From Escherichia phage E26, in sequence record MN655998.1: a stretch of DNA of 64,000 nt; one strand, given 5' to 3'. How positions within the stretch are numbered: the stretch's first letter is position 1; every line of letters starts with the position of its first letter. A program made the position numbers and the translations under genes. Below, in pieces: positions 659 to 62,634 of this stretch. Under the pieces are notes generated by a model. That model worked only from the letters and a program-made list of their open reading frames with translations, was not told the origin of the DNA and searched no databases.

Positions 659-1900
659 ATGACTCATATTTTTACTGAACTGTTGCGGGAATCTACTTCC
701 TCAGTAGCTAACCAGACAGCGCGACCGCAACTATTATCATTAACTCGCGCGGTAAACAACCTGATTTTCTCTGATCTGGTAGCAATCCAGCCAACGGATC
801 AACCAGTATCTGCATTGTACGGCCTACGTTATCTTAATCGTGATGGTCAGATGACTTTCCGAACTGCTACAACCTACGGTGGCGCGGCTGGTGATCGCAC
901 AGAGATTGAAGAGTTTTCAAAAGAAAAATCTTATGACGAAGGCGCACTGTTCAAATCAGACGATGTTGTATACGAAGTTGTGACCGCTGGTACAGTCGGT
1001 GAAGATGCCGAAACTCCAGAAGCTGCAATCTTTAAAGGCGTAATGACAAACAAAATTCGTTTCTATAGCGATTGTGCATCGGTAGAATACTTTGAAGATA
1101 AAAACACCGAAATTTCGTCTACCTCTATGCAGTTTGATAAATGGCAGGTTAATGTAGGTTCTCGTAAACTGAAAACCTCATTCACGACCGAATTGATGCA
1201 GGATCTTGAGGCAAGCCAAATCAACTCTGAAAACTCTGTAATTGATCTTCTGGCTACGATCGCTTCCGAAGAGATCAACAAAGATATTATTCAGAAGTTG
1301 ATCACTGTATCATCTCGCTATAAAATTAAAGGGATCACCCCTGACGGCGTACTTTCTCTCGTTAGCGTTCAGGATGCACCAGCACAAGCGCGTGAACTTT
1401 ACCGCTATGCTTGCGAAATGAGCAATCAAATGTTGCGGACTTCCTCCTTTGCTGGTACATACGTTTTGGCGTCTTCTCGCGTGGTTGGCCTCCTGCAATC
1501 TTCCGGTTGGATGGAAGAAACCGACAATGCTCTAAGCGAAGGTCGTCTACGTTGCGGTCTGGAAGTGTACGCAGACACGACAACACCTTTCGATTATATG
1601 CTCGTTGGTTGTAAGCACATGATCGGTGATATGGAGAGTGTAGGTTCTCTGTTCTACTCCCCATATACAGAAGCCGACGGCGCTGGCGCGTATAAGAGTG
1701 TAATTGACCCTAATAGCTTCCAGCATCATGTAGCTATTATGAATCGTTATTCACTCTCTGTCAACCCATATACATCAAAAGTTGATCAGGAAGAACACCA
1801 GGTCATCAAGGGTGACGATTGGGGTAAAATGGCTGGACGCTCTGAAATGTCCTACATTTTAGGAATCGAACTGCCACCGCTTGAGATTGACAACGCTTAA
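659..1900 (+). CDS. 24: head vertex protein gp24
   Basis: 413 aa; motifs shared with T4 gp24 (ELLRES, LTRA, INKWQ, SRKLKT, EINKDI.QKLITVS, MAGRS) and gp23-like fold. Confidence 0.9.
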   Translation: MTHIFTELLRESTSSVANQTARPQLLSLTRAVNNLIFSDLVAIQPTDQPVSALYGLRYLNRDGQMTFRTATTYGGAAGDRTEIEEFSKEKSYDEGALFKSDDVVYEVVTAGTVGEDAETPEAAIFKGVMTNKIRFYSDCASVEYFEDKNTEISSTSMQFDKWQVNVGSRKLKTSFTTELMQDLEASQINSENSVIDLLATIASEEINKDIIQKLITVSSRYKIKGITPDGVLSLVSVQDAPAQARELYRYACEMSNQMLRTSSFAGTYVLASSRVVGLLQSSGWMEETDNALSEGRLRCGLEVYADTTTPFDYMLVGCKHMIGDMESVGSLFYSPYTEADGAGAYKSVIDPNSFQHHVAIMNRYSLSVNPYTSKVDQEEHQVIKGDDWGKMAGRSEMSYILGIELPPLEIDNA

Positions 1901-2488
1901 CTAAATATCTAACCAAGACAAGTCAGATCCGCCCAAGATTTTTTCGACGGCGGATCTATTTTCTTGATGATATAAGTTAAAACATGGTATCCCATGTCTA
2001 CGGGCAACATAAACAGCAATTCTAGTTCCTCCCGAAACGATTCCATTAACTTCTTTCGCCCAGAATATCACACAATCTACAGGATCATCAAGTGTCTCAC
2101 CTAAGACTTGAGCAACATTTCTAGAAAACAGATTTTGCATGTATAACGGTATAGAACGAGGATTATCATAAACGTGTTCTAATTCATCCATCGCCAGATT
2201 TTTTTGTTCTAAGGTTTGCCATGCAATCACATCATGACCGTTATGCTTGTGGTCATAAAACTTCCAATTTGGAATGAAAATTTTTCTATAATCTGGATCG
2301 TAATACTTCATGAAAGCATTGTCCATACCGTAAGCCCCTCCAGAATGCGCTACAACGCGATTTTCTGACAATACCCTCCCAATGGTACTAGCCATTATCA
2401 AAATGTCGCTAGGCGCTTTTCTAGAGCCTATTAAAGCACATCTACGAAGTGGTTTTACTCCAAATAGATCTTGTAACTGGTCAAACAT
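1901..2488 (-). CDS. SLOG/DprA-like Rossmann-fold protein, function unknown
   Basis: 195 aa; motifs AHSGGAYGMD and SGGTRIAVYVARRHGIP resemble DprA/Smf-LOG nucleotide-binding folds; occupies the T4 rnlB position but is not an RNA ligase. Confidence 0.5.
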   Translation of the reverse strand: MFDQLQDLFGVKPLRRCALIGSRKAPSDILIMASTIGRVLSENRVVAHSGGAYGMDNAFMKYYDPDYRKIFIPNWKFYDHKHNGHDVIAWQTLEQKNLAMDELEHVYDNPRSIPLYMQNLFSRNVAQVLGETLDDPVDCVIFWAKEVNGIVSGGTRIAVYVARRHGIPCFNLYHQENRSAVEKILGGSDLSWLDI

Positions 2489-2640
2489 AATATTTCCTCC
2501 ATAGAAAGCAATATCATACTACAAGTTAATAACAAATACAAGTATCCGCGTAGCGGAAGCGAGCACAGCGAGCAATAAAACACTTCCAGTAATTGATTAA
2601 TAAATGTTCGAAACAAATTTTTATTATTCTATAAGATAAG

Positions 2641-2666
2641 TCTTCGTTTTGATCATAATTTAATCA
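2641..2666. repeat. 26-bp direct repeat copy 1 (TCTTCGTTTTGATCATAATTTAATCA)
   Basis: Identical copy at 2791-2816 inside a 414-bp ORF-free AT-rich gap. Confidence 0.8.
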
Positions 2667-2790
2667 TACATGTAAAAAACTACACAAAAGGATATCGCTT
2701 CGCGAACTCCTACGGAGTATAACATTTGTGTTACAATATGTAGTGATTAATAATTAACCAAAGATACATTTTCTATGTTCTAAAGATCTT

Positions 2791-2816
2791 TCTTCGTTTT
2801 GATCATAATTTAATCA
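2791..2816. repeat. 26-bp direct repeat copy 2
   Basis: Identical to 2641-2666. Confidence 0.8.
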
Positions 2817-2867
2817 AACAGTATTAATATTGTGCACATGTAAACTAAAATTATGTTAATAACATAT

Positions 2868-2894
2868 ACAAAAAAGCCGCCCCGAAGGACGGCT
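2868..2894 (-). terminator. Rho-independent terminator (minus strand)
   Basis: On minus-strand RNA GCCGUCC-UUCG-GGGCGGC followed by UUUUU; downstream of ORF 2903..3340. Confidence 0.6.
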
Positions 2895-2902
2895 AATGTT
2901 AA

Positions 2903-3340
2903 TTATTTGTTGATAACGATCTGATTTCGGCGAATGGTAACATTACTCTTAGAGATGATCAGATCATCCGGCACTACGTTAGTTTTGTATGGCTGGAAGC
3001 GAACAAGCATCTGATTGCGTTTAGACCCTTCCTTAATCTTGATTTCCATCTGGATATTGTTGCCTACGTGAGCAACCGCAATTTCACCTTTATTCTCATA
3101 GACCAACTTGCTGGTAACGTCTCCTGCAAAAGCCTTAATAACTTGCAATGCTTCGTCGTATGCGGTAGAGCTGTGAACTTTCAGAAGGCCAGCCGTAGCA
3201 AGACGGGAGCAAGTGATCGCCGGAGATTGCCAAACATCAACATTAATTTGCTCAATCAGAGTAACACCGCCCTGATCAACTGCTTTGAATGCTTCAAACA
3301 TTGCCTTTTTCATTGCTACGTGGTTTTTACGGAATTTCAT
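2903..3340 (-). CDS. hypothetical protein
   Basis: ORF track 145 aa; no recognisable motif. Confidence 0.5.
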   Translation of the reverse strand: MKFRKNHVAMKKAMFEAFKAVDQGGVTLIEQINVDVWQSPAITCSRLATAGLLKVHSSTAYDEALQVIKAFAGDVTSKLVYENKGEIAVAHVGNNIQMEIKIKEGSKRNQMLVRFQPYKTNVVPDDLIISKSNVTIRRNQIVINK

Positions 3341-3386
3341 AATTAGTCACCTCTATTGATTAGTTATTCAAAATATTAATTACAAA

Positions 3387-3662
3387 TCAGGACATTGCCC
3401 GTTTGAATGCGTCCATTATAACAGTGTTATTTGGCTTGTCAACACGTTTTTGAACTTTATTTTTAAATTTTTTGTTGATGTGGTGTTTACGATAAACAAC
3501 CTTTTCACGGTTGGCGTAAGCCTCGCGTGCGTCTTTTACCATCAACCATGCCTTAGCCGCATCTTGTCCGCTGATCCCGCCAATCTTCTTAGCAATATCA
3601 ACAAAATTAAGACCGTGGTCTTCGCGTAGCATGTAAACCATTAACGCTGTTTTCTTGTCCAT
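3387..3662 (-). CDS. hypothetical protein (start placed at internal Met MDKKTALM)
   Basis: Track ORF 3387..3770 overlaps upstream ORF by 108 nt in another frame; internal ATG gives a 1-nt overlap with the stop of the 3662..3859 ORF. Confidence 0.4.
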   Translation of the reverse strand: MDKKTALMVYMLREDHGLNFVDIAKKIGGISGQDAAKAWLMVKDAREAYANREKVVYRKHHINKKFKNKVQKRVDKPNNTVIMDAFKRAMS

Positions 3663-53876: not shown

Positions 53877-53887
53877 CATTTTTAACA

Positions 53888-53917
53888 AGCCGATCCATGT
53901 GGTCGGCTTTATTTTTA
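53888..53917 (+). terminator. Rho-independent terminator after gene 35
   Basis: GCCGATC-CATGT-GGTCGGC hairpin followed by TTTATTTTTAT. Confidence 0.6.
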
Positions 53918-54037
53918 TACAGTTGGTTAAATTGTAACCAAAACGAAGAAAGATCTTTAGAATAATAGAAAATTTGTTTCGGTTAAAAATTAGTCAGTGC
54001 CTACGGCACGTCGCGAAGCGATATTTTGTTAACATTC

Positions 54038-54045
54038 TATAAATA
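54038..54045 (+). promoter_or_regulatory. T4-type late promoter TATAAATA for gene 36
   Basis: Exact TATAAATA 34 nt upstream of the gp36 ATG. Confidence 0.55.
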
Positions 54046-54078
54046 CTCGGAACTATAACTAATTTTTGAGGTTACTTT

Positions 54079-55569
54079 ATGGCAGATTTGAAATATGGAT
54101 CTACTGTAGGCGGATCTCCCATTTGGACGCAAGGAAACTTGACGATCCAGCCAGCGGGGGATCAGCTTTTCTACAAAGGTCATAAAATCTATACCGCTTT
54201 TGATAGACCTTCGGCTACCGATTTTGATGCTGTTAGTGCATCCGAAGGTGGCACATTTCAAAAGCAAGTTCATTTCGAGGAAGGTTTAAGCGTAGGTAGC
54301 GCATCGGCTGGAGAAACCAAAAAGAATGGTATCTTTAAAGGCCAGAGTGATGCCGCTAATTTTGACGGCGTAAGCTGGGGTTTGCATTCATGGAAGTCAA
54401 TCGGCTTTGTTAATGCCCGTGATGGCGTTATTATGGCGTATATTGACACCACAACGGGCGAATTTAAGTCTAAAGGGACTATCGAAGGGACAACCATTAA
54501 AGACACAGGTCAACGCGTCTATAGCCCTGTTAATAAACCAACGAATAATGATTTAGATTTGGTATCTCGTCGCGGTGATACTCTCACAGGAACATATAAT
54601 TTAAACACTGTCACTGTTAAACTATCGGTTGATTCGAAATTAATTGCAAGGGAACGTGATTTAATTAATTTTGATGCGACTAAGATCTATTATGGTAACG
54701 TTCTTGATACGTTGGTATTCCGAAGTAAAGATGAGCCTACCATTTTTGTTAATGGCAGAGAAGGTCGTTTTTATCACACCAACAATAAACCAACTAAAGC
54801 CGATGTTGGGCTAGGCAATGTCACCAATGATGCACAGGTTAAACGTGCTGGTGATATTATGGAAGGTAACTTGCAAGCGCCTAGAATGTTGGCGACAAAC
54901 GATCCTGCTGGTCCTAATGAATTGGTTCGTTTGAGCTACTTTGAGAGAAAATCAATGGTAGCAAATCCAACCATCATTGGAAACGTTGATTGGAACACTC
55001 TTATTAATCGCGGTATCTATCGTGTGGAAAATGCTGGGTCGGGTACTAATAAACCGTCTGATAGTTATTATAACGGCGTTTTAATGGTATATCGCCCAGA
55101 AGATGCGGTCGGTACTCGTCGAATTGTTCAGGTGTATTATCCTGAATCTATTGACCATCCGATGTGCTGGCGTTCGTGTTCTAATGAATCATGGACTGCA
55201 TGGAACTATGTAGATCACCGTAAATTGGCTGATATTCGCTATGTTAACGTCACCGGCGATACCATGACAGGACCGTTAACTGTTCCGGCTGCAAACGGTG
55301 TTAGAACGGCTAGAGGTGCATATAATGGTGATAACTACTATGCCGGGTTAAATAGTGCTGATGGTACTGCTATGATTCACCGCATTAGTGATATTAAAGG
55401 GACCGAAAAGCTGGGGATCACCCACGACTCAAAGGTCGTGTTTTTCCGTTCTAGAAACAATACTCAAACCCTGGACCGCTATCAGCTTTATCATGAAGGT
55501 AATAAACCTACTCCGGCTGATGTTGGAGCGGTTCCACTTAATGCGGTGATTGATTTTGGTACTTTCTAA
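54079..55569 (+). CDS. 36: long tail fibre distal subunit gp36 (enlarged)
   Basis: 496 aa; N-terminus MADLKYGSTVGGSPIWTQGNL...PAGD matches T4 gp36, which is about 221 aa. Confidence 0.8.
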   Translation: MADLKYGSTVGGSPIWTQGNLTIQPAGDQLFYKGHKIYTAFDRPSATDFDAVSASEGGTFQKQVHFEEGLSVGSASAGETKKNGIFKGQSDAANFDGVSWGLHSWKSIGFVNARDGVIMAYIDTTTGEFKSKGTIEGTTIKDTGQRVYSPVNKPTNNDLDLVSRRGDTLTGTYNLNTVTVKLSVDSKLIARERDLINFDATKIYYGNVLDTLVFRSKDEPTIFVNGREGRFYHTNNKPTKADVGLGNVTNDAQVKRAGDIMEGNLQAPRMLATNDPAGPNELVRLSYFERKSMVANPTIIGNVDWNTLINRGIYRVENAGSGTNKPSDSYYNGVLMVYRPEDAVGTRRIVQVYYPESIDHPMCWRSCSNESWTAWNYVDHRKLADIRYVNVTGDTMTGPLTVPAANGVRTARGAYNGDNYYAGLNSADGTAMIHRISDIKGTEKLGITHDSKVVFFRSRNNTQTLDRYQLYHEGNKPTPADVGAVPLNAVIDFGTF

Positions 55570-55639: not shown

Positions 55640-58585
55640 ATGGCAGATTTAAGCAGAATCCAATTTAAACGCACTAGCACTAAAGGTCGTCGACCGGATG
55701 CTAGTACGATGAATCCGGGGGAATTGGCAATCAACCTTGCGGATCAATATCTTCTTACTAAAAATGATTCCGGTGCTATTATCAATTTAAGTTGTCCTCC
55801 GGTTTATGACCGTGACGTTACAATGGCGGGTAAAGTTAAAGGTAATAATTATATCTTAAGTAAAACCGCTAACTATCTGGAAGATCAGACAGCGCGAGAT
55901 CTTAACTACTTTGGCGCTTTCCGTACCAATGGTCTTGATGGTTTTCTAGAACTAACGCTAAACGTTCCTCATCCTACTGGTGTTCAGCATGGTCGAGGAT
56001 TTACTTTCCAGTATGGACACACTGGATCGCGTGTAGAAACTTATGGCTATAATAAAGAAGGTCAAAAAGCATTTAGCTATAAAATGTATCATGAAGGTGA
56101 TAAACCAACTCCAGGAGAATTGAACGTTTATAGCAAACAAGAAGTAGATAGAATGTTTGTTAAGAACGTTAAACTTGCTACATCTCCTAGTGATATCGTT
56201 GAAGGCTATTTTAAATTAGCAACTGCAATGATTCCACAAAACGGTCTTAGCGTATTTTTCCGTATTCATGGTGGTAACGGATATAACGTTACTGCATACG
56301 ATCAAGTTGATATTGTAGAAATTGTTATTCGCAGTGGAAATGGTCGCCCTAAAGGTGTTAACGTTATTGCATATCGCCGAAATACAAACAAATCATTTGA
56401 TGTTTTGGCTGTTAATACTTCTGGTGATAACTATGATATCTATGTGAAATATCAGCGTTACACTGATAACGTTATTGTTGAATTTGGTAAAAGTGTTGGT
56501 GTTAATCTGGTAGTTCATGACGTTCCAGACTTTGTTGTTGATCGTCCTGTTGGTGATAATGTTATTGGCGGTCGCGCGGTAACTCTTTTTAACACCGAAA
56601 ACAAACGAGGTGTGTTGAGTTTTGACGATAACACACAAAATAGTTATGATATTGTTCACTTGAGTAATGATAAAGGTACTGGAAGGAAATATATTCGTAA
56701 ATTCCGTAGTAACTATAATGAAATGATCTGGCATGAGACTGTTCAAGGTTCTACTTATCGACTCGCCACGGGTAGTACAGATGCTCAGGAGATTCTATCC
56801 GTTGAATCTAGTAGCTCTATTGCTGGGACTCATAAAGGTAATATTCTTTCTGGTCGAATGATGTTAGGTGGCGGTAGTAATGTTATTACCTTGCGGCGTC
56901 CTGCTGGTCAATCCAACCATATTGCGTTTCAAGATAATCGGACTGGAGCTATTACCCGTCAAGGGTGGATCGGTTATGGTAATGCTGATACTAACGTTTT
57001 TGAATGGTATAGTGATGTAGGTGGTAGTTCTATTCGTCACCACATCGACGGACAGATCGAACTTGCAACCGGTAACACAAAACGCGTTTATACTAACGCT
57101 CAATTCATCTCAATGAATAGCGACGCCTACCGCATGCTCTACGGTAATTATGGTGCATTCTGGCGTAATGACGGCGTTAAAGTTTATCTTCTTTCTACTG
57201 CCGAAAATGATACAATGGGCGGATGGAATGCCTATCGTCCATTCATTTATGATTTAACTTCCGGTAACGTTCAATTAGGCGGTGATGGTAACGAAGAAGC
57301 ATTAACGTTAGAACGTGCTTCTCGTGCCGCTCGCTTTAGTAATGACGTTTACATTAAGAAAGGGCTTTTGACTTTCGACGCTGGTCGCTCTGGATCTCGC
57401 GATTATATTCGATTTAATCATTGGGGTGATAGTAATAATGCCCGTGATAACGTTTTGTACATAGAAGATAGTCAAGGCCGACATTTTAGCACAGAACGTG
57501 CGATGGGTACTGGTGCTCTTAAAGCATACTTCTTAGGCGATCTTGAAGTCGGTGGTAAGTTTACTTGGGGTAAAAATACAGCTACATCTAGCTTTAATAT
57601 TCGTGCATGGGGTAATGATTCCCGTAAACAAGTATTAGAATGCGCGGATGAAAGTGGTTGGCATTGGTATACCCAACGTCCAGGCGGTCCGGGAACAAAT
57701 GAGATTATATTCAATGTTAACGGGAAAGTTCAATCTCAGGGTTTTGAGACTTCTGGTAATATTAAGATAACTGGACCAGACATTGAGTTTCGTCGCACTG
57801 GCAATAAGCACATCTGGTTTAGAGATCCTGACGGCTTAGAATTGGGTTTGATTTATTGTGACGACAACGGCGTTATTCGTTTCCGTGGTCAAAAACAAAC
57901 TCAAGATTGGATATTTGGCAATAAGACGATCCAATTAGGAACTAGTGCTACTGTTAGTGGATCTGGTAACGGTTTGATTCGCGGACAAGTTCAAGGTGGT
58001 GCTTGGACACAATGGAGAGATCGTGCTGCTGGCTTATTGGTTGATTGTCAGAATACCGAAAACTCTGCACATAACGTGTGGAAAGCGACACATTGGGGCA
58101 AATTCCACATTGCAGCTATGGGTATTCACGTTTCAGGTGGAAATATAGCAAACGCATTGGCGCGTCTACATGTTAATGATGCAACTTTTGACCATAGTGC
58201 GAGCGGTGACTTCCAGGCAAGCCGTAATGGTAGCTTTAACGATGTTTATATTCGTTCTGATGCTCGCCTTAAAATCAATAAGGAAGAGTATAAAGAGAAT
58301 GCCACAGATAAAGTTAATCGCTTGACGGTATACACCTATGACAAGGTTAAATCTTTAACCGACCGTACTGTCATTGCTCATGAAGTTGGTATTATTGCAC
58401 AGGATCTTGAAAAAGAATTGCCGGAAGCAGTAACAACTTCTAAGGTCGGCGATCCTGATAAGCCAGAAGAGATCTTAACAATTTCTAACTCTGCTGTCAA
58501 CGCTCTTTTAATTAAGGCGTTTCAGGAAATGAGCGAAGAATTGAAAGCCGTTAAAGCTGAACTAGCGGAACTTAAAAAGAATTAA
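55640..58585 (+). CDS. 37: long tail fibre distal subunit gp37 with C-terminal intramolecular-chaperone-like domain
   Basis: 981 aa; N-terminus MADLSRIQFKRTS...PGELAINL as T4 gp37; C-terminus SDARLKINKEEY...IAHEVGIIAQDLEKELPEAV resembles peptidase S74 chaperone domains. Confidence 0.85.
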   Translation: MADLSRIQFKRTSTKGRRPDASTMNPGELAINLADQYLLTKNDSGAIINLSCPPVYDRDVTMAGKVKGNNYILSKTANYLEDQTARDLNYFGAFRTNGLDGFLELTLNVPHPTGVQHGRGFTFQYGHTGSRVETYGYNKEGQKAFSYKMYHEGDKPTPGELNVYSKQEVDRMFVKNVKLATSPSDIVEGYFKLATAMIPQNGLSVFFRIHGGNGYNVTAYDQVDIVEIVIRSGNGRPKGVNVIAYRRNTNKSFDVLAVNTSGDNYDIYVKYQRYTDNVIVEFGKSVGVNLVVHDVPDFVVDRPVGDNVIGGRAVTLFNTENKRGVLSFDDNTQNSYDIVHLSNDKGTGRKYIRKFRSNYNEMIWHETVQGSTYRLATGSTDAQEILSVESSSSIAGTHKGNILSGRMMLGGGSNVITLRRPAGQSNHIAFQDNRTGAITRQGWIGYGNADTNVFEWYSDVGGSSIRHHIDGQIELATGNTKRVYTNAQFISMNSDAYRMLYGNYGAFWRNDGVKVYLLSTAENDTMGGWNAYRPFIYDLTSGNVQLGGDGNEEALTLERASRAARFSNDVYIKKGLLTFDAGRSGSRDYIRFNHWGDSNNARDNVLYIEDSQGRHFSTERAMGTGALKAYFLGDLEVGGKFTWGKNTATSSFNIRAWGNDSRKQVLECADESGWHWYTQRPGGPGTNEIIFNVNGKVQSQGFETSGNIKITGPDIEFRRTGNKHIWFRDPDGLELGLIYCDDNGVIRFRGQKQTQDWIFGNKTIQLGTSATVSGSGNGLIRGQVQGGAWTQWRDRAAGLLVDCQNTENSAHNVWKATHWGKFHIAAMGIHVSGGNIANALARLHVNDATFDHSASGDFQASRNGSFNDVYIRSDARLKINKEEYKENATDKVNRLTVYTYDKVKSLTDRTVIAHEVGIIAQDLEKELPEAVTTSKVGDPDKPEEILTISNSAVNALLIKAFQEMSEELKAVKAELAELKKN

Positions 58586-61833: not shown

Positions 61834-62634
61834 TTAACCCTTCTTATATTCGCAAACATATTGAGTACCATAATCATAGCTAATGCGACCTTTCTCGATG
61901 ACTTCAAAGCGGATTTCATCGTTTTCCCCTACCCACATTTTGTACTCGTTGAAGTATCCTGCTACATCCGGTTTGCTCATACCAACAACCATATTTTTAT
62001 ATTGTTTGCTGCGTGTCAGATTTGATTTAAACACTTCGCGCTCATCAACATATACGAAAGAAGACAATTCACCTTCGGTCATGGTCATTTTCAGCTTGCC
62101 GCCCTTGTTGCCATAAGTAGAGTTGCCATACAATGGATCTTTGCGGCTGTCTGTTTCAATACCATCAATGATTTTCCATGTAAATTTTGCAATGCACTGA
62201 TAAGTGATAGATCCAGAGATTTTCTCTTCTTTCTTCTGTTCTTCCACCACTTTTTCTTCCTGTTTCGGTTGTTCTTCGTCAACCTTCACAGAAGTCTCTG
62301 AATCGCTTTCTGATGCGGTTTCTTCTTTAGGTAATACATTCATCAAGTTTTGGATTTGAGCGTTATATACAGCCTCCAGTGGCTGGATCTGCCCGATATT
62401 GATCATTGTATCACGAACAGTTTTATTCCAGTTGCGTTGCTCTTGTTTAAGAGACGGATCAATCTTAACAGCCTTAACATACACTTCATGAAGTTTAGAA
62501 TCCAGTGCGGAGATTGACTCATTAGCACAAATAAACTTCTCTGATTTGGTAGTAGCTTTAGCGCAATCGAAGGAAGCAGCATTAGCACCGAAAGCAGTAG
62601 CAGAAAGAACGATAGCAGCGATAATGTTTTTCAT
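61834..62634 (-). CDS. secreted DUF1311/LprI-like protein
   Basis: 266 aa; signal peptide MKNIIAAIVLSATAFGANA; FDCAKATTKSEKFICANESISALDSKLHEVY...QRNW pattern typical of DUF1311. Confidence 0.55.
   Translation of the reverse strand: MKNIIAAIVLSATAFGANAASFDCAKATTKSEKFICANESISALDSKLHEVYVKAVKIDPSLKQEQRNWNKTVRDTMINIGQIQPLEAVYNAQIQNLMNVLPKEETASESDSETSVKVDEEQPKQEEKVVEEQKKEEKISGSITYQCIAKFTWKIIDGIETDSRKDPLYGNSTYGNKGGKLKMTMTEGELSSFVYVDEREVFKSNLTRSKQYKNMVVGMSKPDVAGYFNEYKMWVGENDEIRFEVIEKGRISYDYGTQYVCEYKKG

Follow-up and report, generated by a model that had tools for sequence, protein, structure and literature searches.

A conserved non-coding cassette repeated between genes of a T4-type Escherichia phage, with a relative in an E. 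coli prophage

The genomes of T4-type phages are usually read as nearly all coding. The analysis presented here concerns a non-coding module under clear purifying selection in Escherichia phage E26 (MN655998.1), a stretch of which, 64,000 nucleotides long (hereafter the window), carries an intergenic gap at positions 2489-2902. The gap contains two tandem copies (units A and B) of a conserved cassette that lacks an open reading frame (ORF); a third copy (unit C) occurs between genes 35 and 36, a fourth (copy D) is located upstream of gene 3 in the related phage Phi1, and a more distant copy is found in a prophage of Escherichia coli. The cassette family has no database match or annotation in Rfam nor in the phage and E. 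coli genome records inspected. Its members may derive from early-gene leaders and give rise to a small untranslated structured RNA, acting in transcript-boundary formation or processing or as a regulator, and may in addition serve as patches of homology; this reading is advanced tentatively, as a possibility that falls short of being probable.

The window belongs to a Krischvirus (RB49/Phi1/JSE-like): a megablast search with positions 1800-3500 returned 58 phage records, all of them Krischvirus (RB49, Phi1, JSE and GEC-3S included), at 95-99% identity. An initial annotation, made from the sequence by itself, had described the 414-bp gap as ORF-free, AT-rich and unusually long for such a genome, and the description is borne out. 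Two minus-strand ORFs (ORF164 and ORF165) flank the gap. Each of the six frames contains several stop codons, the G+C content is 29.7% versus 40.1% for the window, and the counterpart in Phi1 (413 bp) is, according to the annotation tables, the longest intergenic gap of that genome, followed by gaps of ~307 and ~278 bp. No ORF, transfer RNA, transfer-messenger RNA or Rfam family was found in the gap. Units A and B do contain short ATG-initiated ORFs (MIKTKKDL, MIKTKTYLIE), which were discarded as peptides given their lack of conservation in C, D and the prophage copy.

The repeats reported in the gap proved to be parts of a larger unit. The 26-mer TCTTCGTTTTGATCATAATTTAATCA occurs at exactly two sites (2641-2666 and 2791-2816), with none other in the window within 3 mismatches and 0 expected in 100 shuffles; it lengthens to a 38-nt repeat of 89% identity, and a second repeat, TGATTAATAA, recurs at the same 150-bp spacing. 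The segment CATGTAAA does follow both 26-mers, at 2669-2676, a distance of 2 nt from the first, and at 2836-2843, 19 nt beyond the second. The 20-mer AAAACGAAGAAAGATCTTTA, said to recur in the gene 35-36 spacer, is indeed shared (chance expectation 0.01), its coordinates being displaced by 2-3 nt: the true sites are 2781-2800 on the minus strand and 53940-53959 on the plus strand, instead of 2779-2798 and 53943-53962. Rather than an isolated recurrence, it is one arm of a cassette of ~110-150 nt with three copies in the window and four per genome, as revealed by the BLAST comparison of the gap with the window and the whole Phi1 genome, which uncovered both the larger unit and the fourth copy. 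The 150-bp period was not reported by Tandem Repeats Finder because the units are ~78% alike and differ by indels.

Units A and B share 78% identity over 78 nt (BLAST), the similarity with the gene 35-36 spacer is 80.7% over 88 nt for unit A and 82.7% over 75 nt for unit B, and copies C and D are 92% identical over 110 nt. BLAST, a profile hidden Markov model and a covariance model gave a copy number of three in the window, four in Phi1 and one per prophage, and no weaker or extra copies were detected by the fold-back covariance model in the window, Phi1 and the prophage loci. The cassettes are located in core virion-gene regions, and all four phage copies are co-oriented with the downstream gene, namely ORF164 (A and B), gene 36 (C) and gene 3 (D). 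In the IMG/VR contig 3300045988_033703 (L040 2743-2845), from a metagenomic Krischvirus, copy D is followed by a consensus promoter, TTGACATTATATACTGGATGTGTTAGATT, and by a different downstream sequence without the gene 3 leader; therefore, the right-hand neighbour of D varies between phages.

The anatomy of the units is shared. Each starts with TTG(A/G)TTAAA-N5-...CAA, able to form a local 7-bp hairpin (hairpin 1) in which an A-T pair of units A and B becomes G-C in C and D. This is followed, in order, by the invariant core CAAAACGAAGA, a small hairpin (GAAGA-N4-UCUUU), the hexamer TAGAAT (TAGAAC in A), the AT-rich AAAATTTGTTTCGG, (A/T)TTA(A/G)TCA and the GC hairpins with their T-rich tail. 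The AT-rich part (19-28% GC versus 40% in the window) is an imperfect palindrome of ~78 nt of which the 26-mer is the 5' arm; its fold-back stems are formed by TGATTAA/TTAATCA (outer), CAAAACGAAG with UUUGUUUCG (middle) and GAAGA/UCUUU (apical). The GC hairpins number one or two per unit and consist of stems of ~5 bp with 3-nt loops. Their stems are unrelated in sequence, as can be seen for A, B and C in Table 1, for copy D (GTGCC-TAC-GGCAC and GTCGC-AAA-GCGAC) and for further stems across the cassette copies (GCAACC/GGTTGC, GACGCTC/GAGCGTC), the layout of stem and loop being kept; the two-hairpin layout of A recurs, with different stems, in C, D and the prophage.

Folding of single sequences by minimum free energy (A, B, C and the prophage copy) produced the same extended hairpin and two mini-hairpins. 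An explicit fold-back model, counted on the 13 distinct sequences from which the structure itself was derived, has 88.5% of its cells paired versus 28-54% when the 3' partners are slid by 1-3 columns. Compensatory change is observed at two pairs, columns 17-65 (AU/CG/GC/GU) and columns 19-63 (CG/UA/UG), and the covariation score is 0.150 versus 0.093 in shuffles, a value reached by 0 of 500. Base-pairing appears to be under selection in the aligned sequences, the strand being left undecided by the folding z-scores; a choice of strand from folding energy was given up, these scores being similar on either strand. The Infernal/Rfam scan that had been proposed placed no family on the cassettes: none of the Rfam 15 covariance models reached its gathering threshold on the gap, and the best scores (Ysr49, 23.9 bits with a threshold of 95; TarB, 22.4 with a threshold of 80) are located on the ORF165 terminator, off the cassettes.

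Constraint on the cassettes was evaluated in alignments of 10 genomes for the A/B locus and 8 Krischvirus genomes for locus C, with LF73P4 set aside in the latter. The cassettes are under purifying selection, being 4-6 times less variable than synonymous sites (Table 1), and unit A is no exception, its constraint matching that of unit B despite TAGAAC. The spacer next to unit A provides an internal neutral control. Changes in fold-back C cluster in the 5-nt loop of hairpin 1, for which nine genomes show five forms, and the stem is invariant. Units A/B and C are kept in 58 of 58 Krischvirus records and D in ~56 of 58, always at the same sites. Conservation of the repeats in related phages, on which the initial annotation had staked its proposals, is thus found, the gap being kept in all 58 records.

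The core of the cassette resembles the leaders of early genes. In RB49 and phi1, intergenic cassettes termed PeSLs, for promoter-early stem-loop (Arbiol et al., 2010, PMC2839356; Comeau et al., 2014, PMC4122927), combine a near-consensus sigma-70 promoter, AT-rich in its upstream part, with a stem-loop of a G-run and a C-run inside or beside the promoter (Arbiol et al., 2010, PMC2839356). They end in the Shine-Dalgarno sequence and start codon of an ORFan, and shuffling based on recombination was proposed for them (PMC2839356). Consensus early promoters of Phi1, listed as TTGAC(A/T)-N16-18-TAnnnT sites, are followed by leaders such as ACACACATCAAAACGAAACACACTTTCTTAAGGAGAATCAAAATG; examples are found on the minus strand at Phi1 42652, 123651, 132014, 131733 and 52074 and at 3442 and 4013 of the window. 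The motif C[AG]AAAC[AG]A is present in 8 of 33 promoter-proximal leaders versus 0.7% of random 45-nt windows, and MAFFT aligns this early-leader motif with the cassette core. Leaders behind PeSL-type promoters were also observed to share the 5' sequence ACNCCCATC(A/G)AAACGAAAC...CTTTCTTAAGGAGAATCAAAATG, which is ~30-fold enriched over random genome windows. In the cassettes, what comes after the leader-like core is TTTAGAAT... and the hairpins; a Shine-Dalgarno sequence, an ATG and an ORF are all missing there. The cassette therefore looks like an early leader that would have shed its ORF along with the Shine-Dalgarno sequence, would have acquired hairpin 1 and an apical insertion, and would now run directly into terminator-like hairpins.

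Promoter signals differ among the copies. In D a -10-like hexamer, TATAGT, abuts hairpin 1, with GTTTTA 18 nt upstream, and in the prophage the abutting hexamer is CATAGT, CATAAT or CATGAT, with a GC stem-loop between a weak -35 and the -10; no consensus -35 was found at D, the prophage copy or the internal TAGAAT. A, B and C follow co-directional genes, which are lacking upstream of D and the prophage copy. The regular expression TTGACA-N16-18-TAnnAT matched at 3442 and 4013 and nowhere in 2489-2902 or 53880-54080, and inspection by eye of the gap gave no match to sigma-E, sigma-54, sigma-28, sigma-32 or MotA-box signals or to the late promoter TATAAATA. The CATGTAAA segment was rejected as part of a definable working promoter: GTTTAC/TTTACA gave spacers of 8-15 nt with every candidate -10.

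Outside Krischvirus, relatives of the cassette were found in one prophage family. A pattern scan of IMG/VR and subsequent nhmmer produced full-length matches (E ~1e-12 to 1e-13) in ~25 contigs of 17-45 kb, and a scan of metagenomes yielded just the same two groups, Krischvirus and these contigs. The contigs represent a prophage of E. coli chromosomes present in ~1% of complete genomes (58 of 5426 with the prophage-region query, 53 with the unit C query). Searches of phages (distant blastn), plasmids, IMG/VR (four pattern scans), metagenome contigs and GTDB representatives yielded no relatives beyond Krischvirus and this family; one of the patterns, poorly designed, matched unit B alone. The prophage of PK8568 is ~36 kb long, is inserted in hicB and encodes a large serine recombinase, siphovirus-type structural proteins, a gpA-type large terminase and a Rha/Ant-type antirepressor. 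Among its tail genes there is also one for a NUMOD3-domain protein (L099 15439-16209), a domain typical of homing endonucleases and a gene type common in T4-like phages.

The prophage cassette is found at the left-hand edge of a 1.26-kb region that carries neither ORFs nor annotation (L036 7752-8999; L082 8153-9415; NZ_CP080126 ~2407795-2409057), ~110 bp upstream of the operon with the Rha/Ant-type antirepressor. This region contains several AAAGTGAT(T/C) repeats, more GC hairpins (GAGC-GAA-GCGA among them), a promoter consensus over a palindromic operator, and arrays of ~9-15 iterons whose sequence varies among similar prophages (AGTGTAGGTTT, TTCAGGGGCAAAAAT, CTTGTACATC or ACGGGGA), followed in several variants by a conserved AT-rich stretch; the cassette is 330-480 bp from the iteron arrays. 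By its composition it looks like a control region plus an iteron-type origin. Prophages that are otherwise nearly identical have different iterons and, in parallel, different downstream proteins, which suggests that initiator and iteron modules are swappable. No replication protein was recognisable in the hicB prophage, and Rfam, the C4 family included, gave no match on the region. By tblastn, the prophage (loci L099 and L082) and Phi1 share a gp37-like tail-fibre protein (42% over 920 aa; Phi1 151643-154585), an LprI-like protein (67% overall, its N-terminal part nearly identical) and two more small ORFans annotated without function, the other Phi1 loci compared being ORF262 (157890-158690), ORF190 (118252-118503) and ORF194 (119184-119453); no DNA-binding protein common to both was found. 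Gene flow between Krischvirus and the hicB prophage is therefore evident, and the similarities indicate that exchange between virulent and temperate E. coli phages has probably been recent.

In one assembly the cassettes also mark the junctions of a rearrangement. The LF73P4 assembly (OZ035795.1) differs from Phi1 by two nested inversions (rearrangement positions 56749-56852, 141397-141500, ~37650 and ~83250; loci L131-L134). One of them, of ~87 kb, has both junctions inside C and D: gene 35 leads into a hybrid cassette, beyond which lies gene 3, and the reciprocal junction combines the ORF130 side of D with the gene 36 side of C. The second has canonical PeSLs at its borders, an inverted pair of 92 bp (TTGACA-GGGGATC...GATCCCC-TATACT). 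The other records compared at the gap and copy C are collinear, and the LF73P4 arrangement may be either a real rearranged genome or an assembly error at repeats.

According to the reading that we tentatively favour, transcription of the cassette in the direction of the local genes would yield a small structured RNA that is not translated. In D and the prophage copy the -10-like hexamer at hairpin 1 would drive transcription, and A, B and C would be reached by read-through of the terminators. The function of this RNA could lie in transcript boundaries or processing, or else it could be a regulator or decoy related to the early leaders, and the ~100 bp of repeated DNA could offer homology patches to the phage recombination system. 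In its favour are the structure of the cassette, the selection on it, its uniform orientation and its similarity to leaders. Several observations weigh against it. The promoter scan found no well-spaced sigma-70 promoter on the minus strand of the gap, the hexamers of A, B and C equivalent to that of D are degenerate (TAATAC/TACTGT, CATGTA, TATACA) and lack the key T at -7, and A and C are right behind strong terminators, so that little transcription may reach them. With regard to structure, counting the model on the sequences that gave rise to it inflates the contrast with the slid controls, RNAalifold on its own keeps just two short local hairpins (-2.8 kcal/mol), several changes at single sites disrupt predicted pairs (for example, some prophage copies have CACCAA, and unit B of G2248 has GAACAA), and the folding z-scores are modest (-0.5 to -3.4) and alike on both strands, the element being a DNA palindrome. 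No trans target for the RNA was found either: trans-antisense pairing of the 3' arm with early mRNAs was rejected, being no better than with random genome windows (-7.8 kcal/mol for the 33 leaders versus -8.0). About 7 of the 33 formed duplexes at -11 to -14 kcal/mol, and Phi1 contains no other sites complementary to the 11-mer.

Of the three roles suggested by the initial annotation (small RNA locus, replication origin, recombination site), two gained partial support. A small-RNA locus is plausible, given the pairing kept while sequences change and the purifying selection, even though no Rfam family matches. A recombination site is supported as a consequence of the repeats, C and D being the reciprocal inversion junctions in the LF73P4 assembly.

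The remaining role, that of a replication origin, is the main rival reading, even if it appears unlikely that the cassettes are the origins of a phage without MotA. As R-loop origins of T4 type, they would carry a promoter at hairpin 1 or at the internal TAGAAT firing an untranslated transcript into the AT-rich fold-back, the unwinding element; the RNA would stay hybridised and prime the leading strand, and the displaced sense strand would fold into the fold-back and GC mini-hairpins. The minimal elements of T4 oriF and oriG span ~100 bp and the main T4 origins are near transcription strand switches (PMC3016281). The cassette is likewise ~100 bp long, non-coding and 75-80% A+T, and A/B and D, two of the three loci, are at strand switches; T4 origins, however, share no sequence motif, and the cassettes are homologous. 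RB49 lacks motA and the middle-promoter consensus, therefore its origins cannot be MotA-type. The three cassette loci presumably lie within ~3-6 kb of positions syntenic with T4 oriE, oriF and oriG, a proximity that was noticed after the fact and is weak. The vicinity of the prophage cassette to iteron arrays gives it the look of an iteron-type origin, but the iterons could serve another function. Many of the hairpin loops are c-GAA-g or c-GTA-g, and d(GCGAAGC)-type loops are unusually stable in single-stranded DNA, yet three first hairpins have TAC loops, which are GNA-type on the opposite strand alone. The origin model is further weakened by the absence of a good -10 in A, B and C and by the constraint on unit A, which equals that on unit B in spite of TAGAAC.

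It is equally doubtful that the units are decayed early-gene cassettes of the PeSL type, generic intergenic furniture that supplies extra terminators or spacer and homology for rearrangements. The resemblance of the core to early leaders with Shine-Dalgarno sequence and ATG lost, and the terminator-like hairpins with T-rich tails, would agree with decay. In RB49 and phi1, ORFans were shown to be deleted and shuffled when repeated regulatory cassettes recombine (Arbiol et al., 2010, PMC2839356), and the LF73P4 inversions are bounded by cassettes C/D and PeSLs. Decay is difficult to reconcile with AT-rich fold-backs that, like the hairpins, are 4-6 times less variable than synonymous sites and the adjacent spacer, with the same architecture in four paralogues (78-92% identical) and a distant prophage, and with the retention of A/B and C in every one of the 58 genomes. 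Recognition at the DNA level, with TGATTAA...TTAATCA, CAAAACGAAGA and TAGAA repeats bound as operator or architectural module by a host or phage protein, is decidedly improbable. It would account for invariant blocks conserved in sequence and not merely in structure, for palindromic symmetry on both strands and for the setting of the prophage cassette amid AAAGTGAT(T/C) repeats resembling operator sites, but columns 17-65 and 19-63 carry different complementary pairs within one genome, unfit for recognition by a single protein, the GC stems share no sequence and the tblastn comparison of prophage and Phi1 provided no common DNA-binding protein. A non-autonomous mobile element resembling miniature inverted-repeat transposable elements, Correia or PATE elements is the least credible proposal and is largely refuted by the fixed positions and the lack of target duplications. 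A short imperfect palindrome at several intergenic sites, together with a homologue in another, unrelated replicon of that host and two phage groups that exchange genes, is what such an element would look like; nevertheless, neither target-site duplications nor shared terminal inverted repeats are seen at the borders of the four phage copies and the prophage copy, a transposase gene was not noted in the vicinity, presence/absence polymorphism is lacking (A/B and C in 58/58, D in ~56/58, same sites), and IMG/VR, metagenome contigs and GTDB representative genomes hold no further copies. A ToxI-like tandem-repeat RNA antitoxin, an array of 34-45-nt units beside a toxin, was also discarded: the units are ~150 bp, two in number and 78% alike, and PADLOC identified no toxin next to A/B.

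On the minus strand, the order of elements in the gap is the ORF165 terminator, a 45-bp spacer, unit A, unit B and a 53-bp ORF164 leader. The terminator (stem 2894-2875, 8 pairs followed by TTTTT in the terminator scan) is annotated as such in GEC-3S and G2248 and accounts for just ~30 bp of the gap. A GC stem-loop with a T-run after a gene is found there and, more weakly, at 2557-2545, the stem at the end of unit B, which was a terminator-like match in the scan. ORF165 is preceded by a canonical promoter, TTGACA-N-TATAAT, at 3442 on the minus strand; read-through past its terminator would enter cassettes A/B. In the ORF164 leader, manual reading suggested a weak promoter candidate, TTGTAT (2541-2536) and TATGAT (2518-2513) with a 17-nt spacer, which was not scored by the scan and whose first hexamer matches at 3 of 6 positions. 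ORF164 is annotated as DprA-like in Phi1 and GEC-3S, with a match to Pfam DNA_processg_A below the curated cut-off. PADLOC gave weak matches of its protein to PsyrA (E 4e-5) and ShosA (E 3.5e-4), the antitoxins, DprA-like in kind, of the defence systems PsyrTA and ShosTA; ORF164 could be a counter-defence antitoxin mimic. In a metagenomic Krischvirus contig (L087) a 1.8-kb alignment of the locus is 80% identical to the window, with the gap conserved and the divergence on the ORF164 side. In UPWr_E1 (L136 113-829) the annotated ORF164 extends 129 nt into the gap (window 2489-2617), which accompanies a 1-nt insertion directly before the start codon (GGAGGAAAATATTATG); the extension is probably an annotation artefact.

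Table 1. Location, variability and composition of the cassettes and flanking features; positions refer to the window except where Phi1 is named.
Feature	Positions	Strand	Variable-site fraction	Composition and support
ORF165, hypothetical, 145 aa, upstream gene	2903..3340	-		ORF list
ORF165 intrinsic terminator and few bases after stop codon	2866..2902	-	0.08	AGCCGTCC-TTCG-GGGCGGCT and T-run
Fast-evolving spacer, terminator to unit A	2821..2865	-	0.378 (~synonymous-site level)	Holds GTTTACATG, given as CATGTAAA in the initial annotation
Unit A (whole)	~2820 to 2690	-		Tandem cassette copy, ~150 bp
Unit A fold-back	2740..2820	-	0.077	nhmmer E 2.7e-33; covariance model 84.8 bits; 26-mer copy 2 (2791-2816), core CAAAACGAAGA, palindrome AAAGATCTTT, TAGAAC replacing TAGAAT
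Unit A GC mini-hairpins	2718-2706; 2705-2695	-	0.00 (0/30 sites)	ACTCC-GTA-GGAGT; TCGC-GAA-GCGA; T-rich tail 2671-2694
Unit B (whole)	~2670 to 2545	-		Tandem cassette copy, ~150 bp
Unit B fold-back	2590..2670	-	0.051	nhmmer E 2.7e-29; covariance model 73 bits; 26-mer copy 1 (2641-2666), core CAAAACGAAGA, TAGAAT; inverted repeat with 31-nt arms
Unit B GC region	2545..2577	-	0.059	GCTCGC-TGT-GCTCGC, then TCCGC-TAC-GCGGA (2557-2545), T-rich tail
ORF164 leader	2489..2541	-	0.057	GGAGG Shine-Dalgarno 2500-2496, ATG at 2488
ORF164, DprA-like, 195 aa, downstream gene that units A and B point at, outside cassette	1901..2488	-		ORF list
Unit C	53920..54022	+		Between gene 35 terminator (~53888-53909) and gene 36 late promoter TATAAATA (54038-54045); nhmmer E 1.1e-29; covariance model 94.4 bits
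Unit C fold-back	53920-54000	+	0.147	
Unit C GC hairpins	53997-54009; 54010-54022	+	0.036	GTGCC-TAC-GGCAC; GTCGC-GAA-GCGAT
Unit D	Phi1 62478-62585			Upstream of gene 3, outside window; BLAST of gap against Phi1
Third codon positions of gene 35, gene 36 and ORF165			0.29-0.40 (gene 35/36 ~0.38-0.40)	

Several consequences follow for phage biology. RB49-type phages lack the MotA/AsiA middle transcription on which T4 oriF and oriG depend, and the four cassettes at three loci are concrete candidates for mutation in the study of replication start and expression timing. The cassette heads the control/iteron region of a prophage of E. coli with which Krischvirus has tail-fibre and other genes in common; therefore, the traffic between virulent and temperate phages sharing a host includes regulatory DNA as well as genes. 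Provided that the LF73P4 inversions are genuine, regulatory repeats of ~100 bp can invert half of a T4-type genome without lethality, a matter of relevance to the genome stability of therapeutic Krischvirus. A bolder proposal, rather unlikely as it stands, is that the cassettes constitute a new class of ORF-less early-leader mimics in a MotA-less T4-type phage, exchanged with a temperate phage and operating as small RNAs on mRNAs with CAUC(A/G)AAACGAA leaders or as R-loop origins; if either were true, the inverted copies would also let the genome flip a segment of ~87 kb.

Known systems resemble the cassettes in part. Correia, ERIC/IRU and REP elements are also imperfect intergenic palindromes of 100-150 bp; such elements can contain signals for promoters or terminators, adopt a fold in RNA and favour rearrangements. 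The cassettes differ in having no terminal inverted repeats, target duplications or sequence similarity to them, and in their fixed sites and four copies. Lambda OOP, P22 sar and P1 c4/P4 CI RNAs are comparable as short structured non-coding units of ~100-120 nt, and the prophage copy is placed ~110 bp upstream of an antirepressor operon, whereas the cassettes have no Rfam match or overlapping antisense target and occur in four copies in a virulent phage without an immunity region. T4 oriF (uvsY) and oriG (34) share with them a length of ~100 bp, the non-coding character, a -10-type element beside an A+T-rich segment, the location near transcription strand switches and the presence of several per genome (Kreuzer and Brister, 2010, PMC3016281). 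Those origins have MotA-dependent promoters and no common sequence, in contrast to the cassettes, which are homologous, reside in phages where MotA is absent and are known here from sequence.

The closest known kind are the PeSL regulatory cassettes, two defining features of which fail here. Judged by their sequence, the cassettes are not PeSLs by the definition of Arbiol et al. (2010) because the consensus promoter and the Shine-Dalgarno/ATG are lacking: there is no near-consensus TTGACA-N17-TATAAT and no Shine-Dalgarno sequence or ORF after the core. Moreover, the cassette adds an AT-rich fold-back of ~78 nt, its hairpins are at the 3' end with ~5-bp stems and 3-nt loops instead of the GGGG-loop-CCCC of PeSLs, and its four copies are located in the virion-gene core, compared with ~50 PeSLs in hyperplastic regions. 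On the other hand, both occur in the same phages as repeated intergenic cassettes with GC stem-loops and promoter or leader sequence, the cassette core is similar to the leader downstream of PeSL promoters, and the GC stem-loop between the weak -35 and -10 of the prophage copy reproduces the PeSL layout. Both would be recombination substrates as well, the cassette-bounded inversion of the LF73P4 assembly adjoining the one bounded by PeSLs.

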